DNA of 63,054 nucleotides, counting the filler, from Octopus bimaculoides (lineage: Eukaryota): the NCBI RefSeq assembly GCF_001194135.2. It is 5 parts of 5 records of this genome, joined end to end, with 100 filler letters (N's around TTAATTAATTAA, not from the genome) between each part and the next. Parts side by side here need not be neighbours in the genome. Positions count along the whole stretch, not along the records: positions 12,975 to 30,741 come from NC_068986.1; positions 30,842 to 50,785 come from NC_069010.1; positions 50,886 to 61,407 come from NC_068985.1; positions 61,508 to 63,054 come from NW_026410328.1; 1 more part is not named here. One strand, written 5' to 3'. This document shows positions 14,412 to 63,054 of the stretch, piece after piece. Both the position numbers and the translations under genes were made by a program. Position 1 is the stretch's first letter, and each line of letters opens with the position of its first letter. A model generated the notes under the pieces. That model was given only the letters and a program-made list of their open reading frames with translations. It ran no database searches and was not told where the DNA came from.

Positions 14412-14791
14412 TATATTTATATAAGGGGCATTACTACAGAATAATGCCACACACTGGACTTCCCAAAATAAACACATTTAGCAAAGGGAATGAAGTTTAT
14501 ACAGATAAACTTCATTCCCTTTGCTTGGTCGGATACGTAGAGTGTTCGTTTTTGGTAAGGTGAGAATTCTGTTTATTTATATATGTTTTCCTGAACAATA
14601 CTATGCTGATGAGTGGAGTCTAGATTCATTCTAGTAATCGCGAAATCAGTCGATACATAGTTGAGTTATTTAAAAGAAAGTTGGTCTTCTTCTGTTGGTT
14701 GTTTTTTTCTCGCATTCGGTACTAAATGTGTTTATTTTGGGAAGTCCAGTGTGTGGCATTATTCTGTAGTAATGCCCCTTATATAAATATA
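14412..14791. repeat. Perfect 70-bp inverted repeat (14412-14481 / 14722-14791) enclosing a 20-bp hairpin and a hammerhead
   Basis: Arms pair base for base (coordinate sum 29203). Internal palindrome gcaaagggaatgaagtttat-acag-ataaacttcattccctttgc at 14481-14524. Confidence 0.92.
14596..14663 (+). ncRNA. Type I hammerhead ribozyme, canonical core
   Basis: CUAUG-CUGAUGA(14606-12)-helix II GUG..CUAGA/UCUAG..CGC-GAAA(14642-45)-UC AGUC GA-UA|CAUAG. Helix I CUAUG/CAUAG; predicted cleavage after A14655. Confidence 0.85.
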
Positions 14792-15666
14792 TATATATAT
14801 ATATATATATATATATATATGGATAACAGAAAATGGATTGAAGCATACCTATTTCAGAAATTTGACAATTTCCATCTCTAATTTTGCTGATCATCTTCAG
14901 GTGAATACTTCTTTCTTGATCTTGACAAGGATTATTGTAGTCTAATAGTTAAGTATCTTACAACACACAACATCAAATGTTATCAGAGATGTGGGTGGAG
15001 GACGGTGGAACAAACAGTTGGGACAAGTTCAAATTCAGTTGGTAAAACATGTAGTATTCCAAGTGCTATCATTAGACTAGGTCAGAAATATTACTTGATG
15101 ATCATTGAGAATGCTGATGGAAATACTGCCTCAGCTGTGTCTCCAAAATAGAGAAAATAGTCAGAGAAATAAAGCATTGTTTCTCGAGTCCAAGATAGAC
15201 GATTCCATAATTTCTTGCAGAACAACCTGCACTGATGATTTGTTTCTAGTGATCAATTTGTTTGTGCTGTACATTTAGTTCATTCACTCCATCAAATTGA
15301 CATTACTTGTACAGTTGCATGGTGTGCCACACTAATGATGTCAAAGTCACAGCAATGCAATATGAAATGAAACATTTTGCTCAAGAACGCAACACAGTGC
15401 TCAGTCTGGGAATCAAAACTTGATCTTGCAATCGTGAATGCAATATCATAACCACCAAGCGATGCACATTCTGATGTGGTAATTCATAAAAGTTAGTATT
15501 GTGACTAAACTCTAGGAAATGCCATATTGAAAAAGTATTGTGTTGGAATGCAAGAACAATTATACAAATGATAGAAACATTTTAACTTAAAATAGCTGCC
15601 AATGTGAGGCAACAGAAATGATCAAAAAGATAAAGGCTGTACCATTTTTGCATAGACATTCTTTAA

Positions 15667-16314
15667 CCCTTTAGCATTTAAACTGCTTATACTAGACCCA
15701 AGTATTCTACCTATCTTATGTTCAAACCAGCCAGATCTAGCCTCTCAAACTTACCCTAATCTAAAAATAAATAATCACATCATCAAAATGTTGAAACTAC
15801 AAGATAATTCAAAACAATATGAATAAATAGGCGTAGGAGTGGCTGTGTGGTAAGTAGCTTGTTTACCAACCACATGGTTCCGAGTTCATTCCCACTGCGT
15901 GGCACCTTGGGCAAGTGTCTTCTACTATAGCCTCGGGCCGACCAAAGCCTTTTGAGTGGATTTGGTAGATAGAAACTAAAAGAAGCCCATCGTGTGTATA
16001 TATATATATATATATATATATATACATATATATATGTGTGTGTGTGTGTGTGTGTGTATATGTTTGTCCTCCCAGAATCGCTTGACAACCGATGGTGGTG
16101 TATTTACGTCCCCGTAACTTAGCAGTTTGGCAAAAGAGACCGATAGAATAAGTACTAGGCTTCCAAAGAATAAGTCCTGGGGTCGATTTGCTCGACTAAA
16201 AGGTGGTGCTCCAGCATGGCCGCAGTCAAATGACTGAAACAAGTAAAAGAGTAAAAGAAAGAGTAAAGAGTAAATAAGTATTACATTTGACAGAGTAATC
16301 TGAATGCTAAAGGG
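15667..16314. mobile_element. piggyBac-type MITE interrupted by a SINE
   Basis: TTAA flanks at 15663-66 and 16315-18; SINE inserted at 15830-16270. Confidence 0.8.
15830..16270 (+). mobile_element. tRNA-derived SINE family B with a CORE-like segment and an internal (TA)n(TG)n tract
   Basis: ggctgtgtggtaag...ggcaccttgggcaagtgtc; TSD taaata. Copies at 279-429(-), 36320-36716, 37818-38342(-), 39255-39540, 49590-49870(-), 50026-50430(-), 58165-58290 and 59695-59850. Confidence 0.85.
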
Positions 16315-16739
16315 TTAACGAGCTCTCTGATTGAATGCCATTTCTGAATGCCAACCATTTTATAGAGGATGTTGAAGGCATTTTTTCACGGCACCAGTAC
16401 TAATGAGGTTGCTTTGTAACTTGCAAAACAAAAGAACCCTGTTGCTTGAGAGGGCAAATACAAGATACAGTGGTTGCTTTATGTGAGGTGTTGAGAAGCT
16501 AATGACTGATGAAGAAGTAGGGATAAATTTATTGTGGAGATTTATGGCTACTTGATCTTTTACAAAGTTGGGATATGAGCAAGTGGAGTAGTGTCACAAA
16601 GAAAGGTAAATGTGGTGGTGGTGATAAAGTGCCAGAACAAATCTTCATGGTGATATGTCCAACAAGGTGAACAGAAGAGAACATGAATTGAACTTCAGTC
16701 TTGCCATGCTAGCATAGCTGATGGGTAGGTCTTCTCAAA

Positions 16740-18330
16740 CACTGCTTATCACCAACTGTTTCCGTCCTTTGTCATCTCCTTCATGAGGCTCAACATTCAG
16801 CCTTTGCCACCTCATCACATGTCTTCCTAGGTCTCCAGAGTTTCCGTCTACTGTAAGCAATCAACTCATCTTTTCACACTTAACCTCATCCATAATCTAC
16901 ATCATATGTCCAGACAAATGCAGTCTTTTCTCTTGCACTTTTCCATCAACACATTTGAACTTTGTTATACAAGCTCATTGACAATGCATAATCATCAGAG
17001 CATGCTTGTTTGATTTCTTTCTAGTCTTCTCAGGAACTCTGCATTCAGTGTCACTATTTCACTCCCATATAGCAAGGAGATTATATTTAGATATTATATT
17101 GTCTGCTTTTTACTCTGAGAGAGAAACGTTTTGTTACCAGCAGAGGTAGTAGCTCCAGCTCTTCTTACTCTGACTACTATATTTCTACAACATTCTCTTC
17201 CACAAATAATTAGGTCAGTCACTTTGGTAAGAGAAACTAATACCTTTAGGGATCCTACTGGACAACTAAGAGCATTGATTTGTCATGTACAATTAATGTT
17301 TATTGCTCCAGCACACCTACCACATCCAAAACCTGCTTTGTTAACTTTCCCATGACCACTGCATCTCTTGTATCCATAGTTTGCATTGGTTTTATTACGT
17401 AACTTATAGTAATTCCATATACTGAATAAGGCTATTTCCCTGACAAAGCAGGGTCCTGTTTGTTTTCATAGTTATACTTTAGTCTTTGACAAGTTAATTT
17501 AGAGGCTCTTCCATGCCAGAAATTTCTTCTCTAATCCTATAACATTGTGGTCATAGTCATCTAGTTTTAACCCTTTAGTATTGATTTCTCTGTCAAATGT
17601 AATGCTTATTTAATTACACTGATTTGAATTAGTCATATATTACCTTGTAACTTTGGGATTTCAATGACATGACTGTCTATTTTTAGAATATTTTAGGGTA
17701 AGTGTGAGACGCCAGATCTGGCCAGTTTGAAGTTTAAACAGGTAGATTATTTTGGTCAGATATAACTGGTTGAAATGTTGAAGGGTTAAACTCCTCTAGC
17801 CCAGAGGACTAAGATAAATAGACAATGACTGAGCATTGGGCCCTGACGGTCCCCTACATGCACACTAAATTTGTCACTCTACTAATTGCTCTCAACTTAC
17901 CGTTAGCATCTTTGAACATGGCTTGCATGGCTCTCACAAGCCATACATTACATCTTCAGTACTCAGCAGACCACTGAGTGAAGGACTCAAAGACTTTTTC
18001 CAGGTCATCAAATGCAAGGTGCAGCAGGGTTACTCCAGCACAAAAGTTAGTCTACTTCTCCGAGGCTAAATTTTGCATAAGTCGATCAAACCATAACTCT
18101 TTCAAGGACTTGCATAACCTGGTCCAACAATACCCATCATTATCTCTTTGTAAGGCATGAAGCTTTGCCATGGTAACAGTTGACTATAATGCTGCAATAC
18201 CAGTCACTGAGTATGACACTTTCCTATATAATCTGATTGACTGATGCAGGTAACTAGTCCATACCCATCAATATCATTGATGGACCAAGAACTTTTCCTA
18301 TCTTCATATCCTTAACTCCTTTATCTATCA
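16740..18330 (-). mobile_element. Degraded RTE-clade LINE ORF2 (RT) remnant
   Basis: The reverse strand gives LAFDDLEKVF, WLVRAMQAMFKDA, LLYGSE and GRPRKTCDEV, similar to RTE motifs; many disruptions. Confidence 0.7.
17571..17785. mobile_element. piggyBac-type MITE inserted in an RTE remnant
   Basis: TTAA flanks at 17567-70 and 17786-89. Confidence 0.8.
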
Positions 18331-61789: not shown

Positions 61790-61990
61790 ACTAACCGGAA
61801 GTGACGACAGTGACGTCGGCAAAATTTCATAGAACACGTTTGATATTCGAAGGGTGGGTTTACTATGTAGATATCGACAAACGTCTATATTCTTGAAGTT
61901 GTCAACCATTCGTTGAATTTCGTTGACCCAAACGATGACGTTACAGCTTTCGTTAAGCTATACGTTGAAATAAGCTCCAAAACACATCAC
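61790..61990. promoter_or_regulatory. Candidate promoter-like segment
   Basis: CCGGAAGTG (ETS-type) at 61795-61803, TGACGTC at 61811-17, and local CpG enrichment. No transcript evidence. Confidence 0.25.
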
Positions 61991-62398
61991 ACGACCCGGT
62001 CCGGGAATTGAACTCGCTACTTCGTGATTGTATACACGATGCTCTAATGCGCCTTCACAATTGAACTCACTACCTCATGATTGAGAGCCCGGTGCTCTAG
62101 CACTGAGCTATACGTCTTCACAAAAGAGAATAAAGTATGATTTGAGGGAATGTGGGCTGCTATTTTCGTCACCTCGTACAGATCCTGTCGTAAGCTTTTC
62201 TGCGGACTAATCTGAATGTTTTGTGTGATGAAAATCTGTGCATGTATATCCACATATATGAGTGTTTGTGCGTCAACATATACAAAAGCACATTCTCAAA
62301 CGCATATACTTATTTGAGTTTATGATTTATTCCAGAATAATCCAAGGAAATATTATTGTCACCGGATATATGAATCCACAACTCTTCCATCCATAATT

Positions 62399-62444
62399 AG
62401 TTTGATAAGTGCCAACGCACGAAACTCCCGGCCTTTGGGTCACT
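62399..62444 (+). ncRNA. Candidate hammerhead ribozyme with a U3-A8 core variant
   Basis: AGU-UUGAUAA(62402-08)-GUGC CAAC GCAC-GAAA-CUC..GGG-UC|ACU. Helix I is only 3 bp. Confidence 0.55.
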
Positions 62445-63054
62445 TCGTTGCTTCCGCTAAATATTAATAAGAATATTCATGTGCTCCTATTTCGAGTTCT
62501 ATGTTTCCTGTTTCCATCATTAATTTTTTTCTTTCTATCTATCTATCTATCTATCTATCTATCTATCTATCTATCTATCTATCTATCTATCTATCTATCT
62601 GTTTCTCTGTCTGTCTCCCTATCTATCTACATATACATGCACATAAACATACATACATGTATACATACATATATATATATAATTATACACACACACGCAC
62701 ACACACACACACGCACACACATACATATATATTTATATACATGTATATGCATATATATATATATATATATATATATATATATATATATATATATATATAT
62801 ATATATACCTGTATACATACATAAGCACACATACACATCTACACAGACACACACACACATATATACATGTATACGCATATATATATGCGTGTGTGTGTGT
62901 GTTTGTGTGTGGTGTCCACGTATTTTTATACATATGTATGCTTGTATGAATGTATTCATACACACACACACACACACATTCACACACATACACAGAGGCA
63001 CATGCACAACCATAAACACACGCACACATACACACACACACACACACACACACA

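Follow-up and report, generated by a model that had tools for sequence, protein, structure and literature searches.

The 63,054-nt stretch of Octopus bimaculoides DNA studied here (the window; five parts of assembly GCF_001194135.2, joined end to end with filler) carries three short elements, A, B and C. They are probably protein-free, high-copy derivatives of Penelope-like elements (PLEs), with one hammerhead ribozyme per unit, non-autonomous and mobilised in trans by a PLE protein of the reverse transcriptase (RT)/GIY-YIG type. They likely represent undescribed families of a known kind, and their mirror-image arms are likely a known by-product of PLE insertion, not a new design. The anatomy of A-C equals that of described PLE insertions, namely an inverted 5'-truncated copy, a tail at one end, a junction palindrome and (TA)n (PMC8557442, PMC3846280). 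Because units of B and C that lack an open reading frame (ORF) close head-to-tail, we read these two as retrozyme-sized non-autonomous PLE derivatives. The original prediction of PLE affinity, several distinct families and young inserts is thus supported, as is its claim of non-autonomous status for B and C, whose ORF-less units close head-to-tail in reads.

Anatomy of the three elements

Inverted repeats were taken from a self-BLAST of the window; five further inverted-repeat candidates (I1-I4 and I9) are N gaps and gap linkers, not elements. The arms of A and B are identical throughout (Table 1), and those of C (52551-52921/52954-53323) agree at 367/371 positions, with 4 differing sites and the right arm entering an N gap. 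(TA)n stands at every sequenced outer end. An extension is present on the left end only in A (~105 nt) and B (45 nt); that of C (~135 nt) is also at the left, the right end falling in the gap. The outer tails of A and C are related (61/84 aligned columns), and a terminal hairpin motif is common to both (3 matches, against 0 in 100 shuffles). Since A shares its ends with C, we tentatively place it with these elements; the reads cover the B and C regions only.

The longest Met-to-stop ORF is 50, 35 and 31 amino acids in A, B and C, and a scan of 68 fragments, to which A-C contributed 10, revealed no PLE Pfam domain; none of the three has the single ORF with telomerase-like RT and GIY-YIG of an autonomous endonuclease-positive (EN+) PLE. 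Hammerheads had been predicted inside three near-perfect inverted repeats without ORFs. The repeats are there and no ORF exceeds 50 amino acids, but the ribozymes of A and B lie in the loop between the arms and only that of C lies within them. The three units have a GC content of 0.32, 0.42 and 0.29 and fold better than shuffles (z -9, -8 and -5; 30 shuffles each).

The type I hammerhead near the 3' end and the variable 5' truncation with a head-to-head inverted copy are those of PLE insertions. So is the one-sided tail, although the tails of A and C are longer than the published 30-40 nt and the far end of C is in a gap. The (TA)n target and the Hydra-style hammerhead, compared by eye with File S2 of PMC8557442, match those of the Hydra clade. 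The RT and endonuclease motifs of that clade (RWK, DKT, CxCx5C and no CCHH) belong to a protein that the ORF-less elements do not encode.

Table 1. Positions of the elements, hammerheads and relics in the window
Feature	Position	Strand	Remarks
A one-sided tail, adjoining (TA)n	14306..14411	-	absent from right end; outer part aligns with C tail
A inverted 5'-truncated copy, 70 nt	14412..14481	-	70/70 vs 14722-14791
A direct copy, 46-nt palindrome at start (14480-14525) and terminal hairpin, ends in (TA)n	14482..14791	+	
Hammerhead A, type I	14596..14663	+	core 14606-14612; predicted cut after 14655; stems I/II/III 6/4/3 bp; strict descriptor
Decayed PLE RT fragment	30177..30464	-	phmmer E 1.4e-6 to P0009; tblastn E 3e-12
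Core-only hammerhead relic family, copy 1, ends in (TA)n	30466..30741	-	core box site 30582
B one-sided tail, 45 nt	51599..51643	-	outer end joins unit head 51784 in other copies and RNA
B inverted 5'-truncated copy, 142 nt	51644..51785	-	142/142 vs 51944-52085; 11 other arm ends elsewhere
B direct copy, unit head to second terminus, ends in (TA)n	51784..52085	+	
Hammerhead B, minimal type I	51874..51918	+	core 51880-51886; predicted cut after 51912; strict descriptor
C tail ~135 nt, adjoining (TA)n	52384..52519	-	
C inverted full-unit copy with mirror hammerhead	52520..52921	-	core 52736-52730; predicted cut 52672
C second unit round begins (repeat of 52384-52418), then snap-back	52922..52956	-	97% over 35 nt
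C direct copy with hammerhead, broken by N gap	52954..53323	+	core 53139-53145; predicted cut after 53203
Weak relic: + strand with C-like stem III, - strand with half motif at gap edge	56326..56592	.	site 56335; 14/14 vs C stem III
Decayed B relative: hammerhead without first two core bases and 3' arm ending in microsatellite	57757..57975	+	29/36 columns vs B arm
Old foldback (74%), both copies begin inside ribozyme; 3' half only, Hydra-like stem III	60290..60455	.	site 60391; File S2 row Hydra-1_oBim
Core-only hammerhead relic family, copy 2	60680..60800	-	core box site 60749
Hammerhead-like relic D, isolated, U3/A8 core, no inverted repeat	62399..62444	+	loose descriptor only

Hammerhead motifs and their variation

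A type I hammerhead descriptor was applied in a strict and a loose form, with 200 shuffles as the null. The strict form matches 2 sites (14606 and 51880), a count that 0/200 shuffles reach, and the loose form 3 (14606, 51880 and 62402; shuffle mean 0.84), which 12/200 shuffles reach. The strict pair exceeds chance; the loose count does not. The motifs of C (53139/52736) have an intact core and stem III and fall outside the descriptor because stem II starts with an A.A mismatch at its base and stem I is bulged. Mismatches at this base recur in published Hydra-clade ribozymes (File S2, PMC8557442), and an RNA subfamily of C restores an A-U pair there (61/119, 40/101 and 35/71 reads; DNA contig depth 0). 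The motif at 62402 has a U3/A8 core with a stem I of just 3 bp, and its descriptor match is not above chance; its stems II and III resemble those of Hydra-2_aMil (File S2, PMC8557442). Where at least four hammerheads with intact or compensated cores had been predicted, 14606 and 51880 are clean, whereas the C pair is mismatched at stem II, 62402 is weak and 'compensated' was not borne out.

Across the B family, C stands at 51907 (T in the window) in ~99% of contig depth, which makes stem III palindromic, and A>G at 51909 is found in about half of contig depth, with a U.G pair kept in the dimer on cofolding. In the 40 variant rows considered, from a total of 126, changes in the B ribozyme fall on N7, the loops, H17, a wobble-keeping stem I site and sites in stems II and III, and none on the invariant core bases. 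This variation, being a variant listing rather than a covariation test, is compatible with selection on a dimer-type ribozyme. Folding z-scores of the single ribozymes are weak (-2.3 to +1.0).

Copies elsewhere in the genome

Six sequencing runs out of 24 listed were used, as DNA contigs (including X1 and X2) and RNA runs (X21-X23); a further run, X20, with a share of 0.04, does not count as evidence. Contigs and reads placed at 85% likeness on the B reference (51535-51960) number 7,780 and 5,341 in two DNA runs and 931 of 12.9 million RNA reads; the C reference (52384-52980) received 2,598 DNA contigs and 326, 354 and 287 reads in three RNA runs. Both are thus high-copy, with thousands of matching contigs. 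We did not accept summed contig depth as a measure of copy number, because overlapping short contigs inflate it.

B gave 11 foldback junctions (15 of 19 joints viewed), each in a single contig and leading from an inverted arm into a direct copy. No arm end (41-142 nt) is shared among the 11, and the direct copies begin at 9 different points. Since both differ among copies, the foldback appears to be made anew at each insertion. The hammerhead with a long inverted repeat, originally put forward as a recurrent architecture, is not supported as a conserved one: arm length and truncation vary by copy, and the pattern is known PLE insertion anatomy (PMC8557442, PMC3846280, PMC4209133).

The outer end of the B tail (51599) is joined to the unit head (51784) in 3 contigs each of X1 and X2, and in RNA by 42 reads from 28 starts (X21). 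This closure defines a unit of 347 nt, and 3/11 foldback direct copies start exactly at its head. The window copy of C amounts to 1.06 units, passing through a ~538-nt unit and 35 nt of a second round; its closure occurs in 3/3 RNA runs (13, 16 and 15 reads), in 4/12 joint rows and with at least 3 spacer variants. Head-to-tail joints are thus present in B and C, with no record spanning two units. The putative unit of A is ~416 nt. B (347 nt) and A (~416 nt) have the size and content of a retrozyme (non-coding, low-GC, ~150-450 nt, one type I hammerhead); C, at 538 nt, is above this size and within the range of 51-972 that Li et al. 2026 give (bioRxiv 10.64898/2026.07.22.740005).

It might be argued that A-C are merely 5'-truncated ends of autonomous PLEs, that is, solo pseudo-long terminal repeats (pLTRs), and that the head-to-tail joints are template jumps at few loci. 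Truncated PLE ends would show the same anatomy (PMC8557442, PMC3846280, PMC8969392), C fits the opposite-strand minimal hammerheads 100-700 bp apart that have been deemed probable truncated PLEs (PMC4209133), and the B closure is seen in only 3 listed contigs per DNA run. However, in both B and C several sequence variants close at one fixed point, and the main loose end found before the B head is tail and not ORF. Moreover, 3 direct copies start at that head, and summed contig depth rises there (51790-51819). We regard this explanation as unlikely, though the strongest of those opposed to ours.

It is hard to sustain that the foldback serves a function in a fixed form, as a hairpin element or one like a miniature inverted-repeat transposable element (MITE) with a ribozyme, moved whole and making long double-stranded RNA. 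The 99-100% identity of the arms, the long hairpins into which whole elements fold and an excess of A>G and T>C over G>A and C>T sites in RNA (110 to 49, X21) would suit it, but arm ends differ in 11/11 other B copies, which largely refutes it for B, both C ribozymes would be trapped in duplex, and the editing excess of RNA over DNA falls short of significance (Fisher p 0.07-0.39, with paralogues uncontrolled). Nor is there much to commend the perfect inverted repeats as assembly artefacts of a gappy short-read scaffold: the window has 5,365 N in 21 N runs, C ends in a gap and no listed contig bridges the exact B or C junctions or spans either reference stretch, yet two DNA runs have like foldback junctions in contigs independent of one another, the C arms differ at 4 sites and the B arms deviate together from the family majority in locus-specific ways.

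A possible mechanism and the question of cleavage in vivo

We propose the following for A-C as PLE derivatives mobilised in trans. The PLE protein would nick (TA)n, and complementary DNA (cDNA) would begin at one of two fixed sites, the tail end or the arm end. Synthesis would circle the unit and then either fold back or join a second cDNA, giving a new foldback at each insertion. The minimal ribozymes would cut tandem transcripts, that of B probably as a dimer via its palindromic stem III. The template may be circular, or it may be a linear monomer whose copying jumps from one end to the other; the data fit both.

With the 3 head junctions excluded, the direct copy starts 2-7 nt past the predicted cut in 3/8 B and 1/4 C junctions. 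Such proximity has P 0.0007, 0.002 and 0.011 under a uniform model for windows of 7, 10 and 15 nt; the width was picked after viewing the data, and P is 0.21 for any 7-nt window holding 3/8. As a lead only, these starts hint at cutting in vivo; pausing at stem I, or a bias in alignment, might produce them as well. A bolder reading, which we offer tentatively and do not favour at present, is that A-C are abundant octopus mini-Penelope retrozymes, ribozyme-cut circular RNAs copied beyond one turn and integrated by a PLE protein with (TA)n as its target, whose foldback junctions, thousands in the genome, record in vivo cuts. If true, the junctions would prove directly, by anatomy, that animal retrozymes are mobilised by PLEs and that hammerheads of the PLE type are active in cells.

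Standard RNA-seq libraries, as used here, cannot reveal circles, and the closure joint is also found in DNA; closure reads are therefore no proof of circular RNA. Both first-mate orientations are present among the RNA reads. A pile-up of read ends at 52779, in 1/3 RNA runs, is away from any predicted cut. In the loose-end consensus of X21-X23 (52384-52980 and 51535-51960), T>C and A>G changes vary by run in a manner that looks like hyper-editing, an uncontrolled observation.

Several points weigh against A-C as trans-mobilised, ribozyme-bearing PLE derivatives. No Rfam hammerhead (clan CL00010) reaches the gathering score in the window, and this was the first check that the original prediction set for itself; no hammerhead is among the 150 of 256 E-value rows seen, all microsatellite noise, and 4 local Rfam scans gave a single HH10 row, at E 6.6. 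The Rfam models presumably overlook minimal ribozymes of the PLE type. The RNA share is 72 reads per million for B and 25-30 for C, a level compatible with read-through or intronic transcription as well as with anything else, and read ends do not pile up at the predicted cuts in the B or C RNA runs. The C closure is absent from the listed DNA contigs (0 in X1), and no autonomous partner was identified within the window. A rare ORF-bearing parent sharing the ends may exist, the loose ends viewed being 24 of 506 for B and 24 of 220 for C. The tails of A and C (~105 and ~135 nt) also exceed the 30-40 nt already mentioned. Membership of A-C among the retrozymes is incomplete, tandem arrays and circles being putative.

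Relation to known systems

The closest relatives in anatomy are EN+ PLEs of the Hydra clade, including Hydra-1_Obim, which like A-C have a type I hammerhead near the 3' end, an inverted truncated copy, a one-sided tail and (TA)n (PMC8557442). The inverted 5'-truncated copy, the tail and the (TA)n bias were described by Craig et al. 2021, who list Octopus families of Hydra and Naiad (PMC8557442). The stem III of Hydra-1_oBim equals or nearly equals that of C and of the relics at 56335 and 60391 (File S2, PMC8557442). In contrast to these PLEs, A-C have no ORF, B and C close head-to-tail and the A and C tails are longer; moreover, the Hydra-1_Obim 3' end, read by eye, differs from the ends of A, B and C, and six short motifs had no match in a pLTR context in the portion of the PMC8557442 supplement consulted.

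Non-LTR retrozymes were defined by Cervera and De la Pena 2020 (PMC7229834; review PMC7761336), and Li et al. 2026 derive them from PLE pLTRs, with 1/9 tested dimers cleaved (bioRxiv 10.64898/2026.07.22.740005). In metazoans they resemble A-C in their non-coding unit of a few hundred nucleotides, single type I hammerhead, GC <50% and self-paired fold (PMC7229834), and B and C in their head-to-tail joints; a PLE origin and PLE-driven mobility have been proposed for them (PMC7229834; Li et al. 2026). Unlike retrozyme tandem arrays, A-C were observed as dispersed monomers with an inverted copy and a tail, and they carry ribozymes of the minimal PLE type. With 538 nt, C exceeds the 170-400 nt of retrozymes, of which self-cleavage and abundant circular RNA are features (PMC7229834). 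Minimal PLE hammerheads share with A-C a short stem III with a palindromic loop, the dimer type, dispersed single motifs and opposite-strand pairs 100-700 bp apart (PMC4209133); they are treated as probable truncated PLEs, and fixed head-to-tail non-coding units are not described in the parts of that paper drawn on here.

Two further systems have hosts and clades that differ from those of the octopus elements. Arkhipova et al. 2013 (PMC3846280) describe solo and inverted Penelope pLTRs of Adineta vaga, which share the head-to-head inversion, the junction palindrome and the optional tail, and there the pLTR is enough for mobilisation in trans. Chlamys elements without autonomy (such as MRC1) share non-autonomous status and head-to-tail insertions, most Chlamys being without hammerheads (PMC8557442). 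Frangieh et al. 2024 report two internal RT start sites that account for the PLE tail, and find hammerhead cleavage dispensable in vitro, with no reads ending at the cut (PMC11167929).

In O. vulgaris, 190 PLE families account for 6.83% of the genome, hammerheads being unmentioned in the consulted parts of that paper and its supplement (PMC13282606); several PLE ends per 63 kb are therefore expected. In the literature on octopus or cephalopod hammerheads, retrozymes and Penelope we found no paper on the A-C families, which Dfam, Repbase or the O. vulgaris library may catalogue. A 22-nt motif of B had 0 matches in metagenome contigs and 0 in viral contigs in the collections scanned.

The ribozyme with a foldback is already known PLE anatomy, and the value of A-C lies in the questions of retrozyme mobilisation and in vivo cutting. 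Units without an ORF that close head-to-tail here bear the signature of PLE insertion, where earlier support for mobilisation by PLEs consisted of co-occurrence together with the phylogeny of pLTRs (Li et al. 2026). Foldback junctions of high-copy families, collected genome-wide, could address in vivo hammerhead cutting computationally.

Relics and coding fragments

The relics at 30582 and 60749 form one family (94/126 aligned columns identical, no stem I) in which both core boxes are present, 2 such sites being seen against a shuffle mean of 0.06. The 3'-half motif with a stem of at least 3 bp occurs 10 times in the window, against a shuffle mean of 2.35 and a maximum of 7 in 100 shuffles; relics are thus enriched as a class, and single relics stay uncertain. 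Of the decayed or partial motifs predicted, at least five, 30582 and 60749 make up this family, 57757 is without its first two core bases, 60391 is a 3' half only and 56335 is weak. An additional decayed relic in the Hydra style lies at 59480-59660 (minus strand), with its 3' half at 59589 and its end in (TA)38 at 59397-59472; further 3'-half motifs are at 57382-57391 and 56581-56592 (both minus), one interrupted by an N gap.

The RT fragment next to the 30582 relic matches P0009, which itself matches RVT_1 at E 0.0036, under the curated cut-off, and a full phmmer scan gave 4 relatives at E<=0.001; nothing was found in Pfam, a word-based homolog search, the protein atlas or the PDB. It is probably an insertion separate from the 30582 relic, because it starts mid-RT behind a microsatellite. 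A short piece at 30229-30270 (plus strand) is inverted relative to the remainder. At 57595-57753 (minus strand), on the strand opposite to the 57757 relic, there is a putative GIY-YIG fragment, read from a motif resemblance; it has no Pfam match, 0/2 homolog candidates scored, and its best atlas value is 0.79, to an unnamed entry. The predicted adjacency of relics to coding fragments is supported for the RT beside 30554 (tblastn E 3e-12) and gains no support from Pfam, homolog and atlas searches for the GIY-YIG beside 57755.

Genomic setting

The window is rich in microsatellites. An aldolase gene occupies 41682-50784 (plus strand; Pfam PF00274), its last 46 codons lying outside the sequenced part; one exon matches proteins named Octopus vulgaris and O. 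sinensis at 100% identity and other exons show 86-97%, which confirms an Octopus host. B and C may sit in its last intron or 3' flank, in which case the B ribozyme would be on the sense strand. Exons of a minus-strand gene extend over ~4000-29000, which would put element A in an intron, antisense to that gene; two of the exons, long and rich in Ser/Thr/Asp (25584-27160, minus), are without a Pfam match. Decayed Tc1/mariner transposase pieces are present at 8347-8799 (plus; Pfam PF01359, E 2e-11) and, judged by eye, at ~39400-40350 (minus). An old 300-bp foldback (73%) at 59865-60160 holds no ribozyme and has, by eye, the look of a mariner-type MITE.

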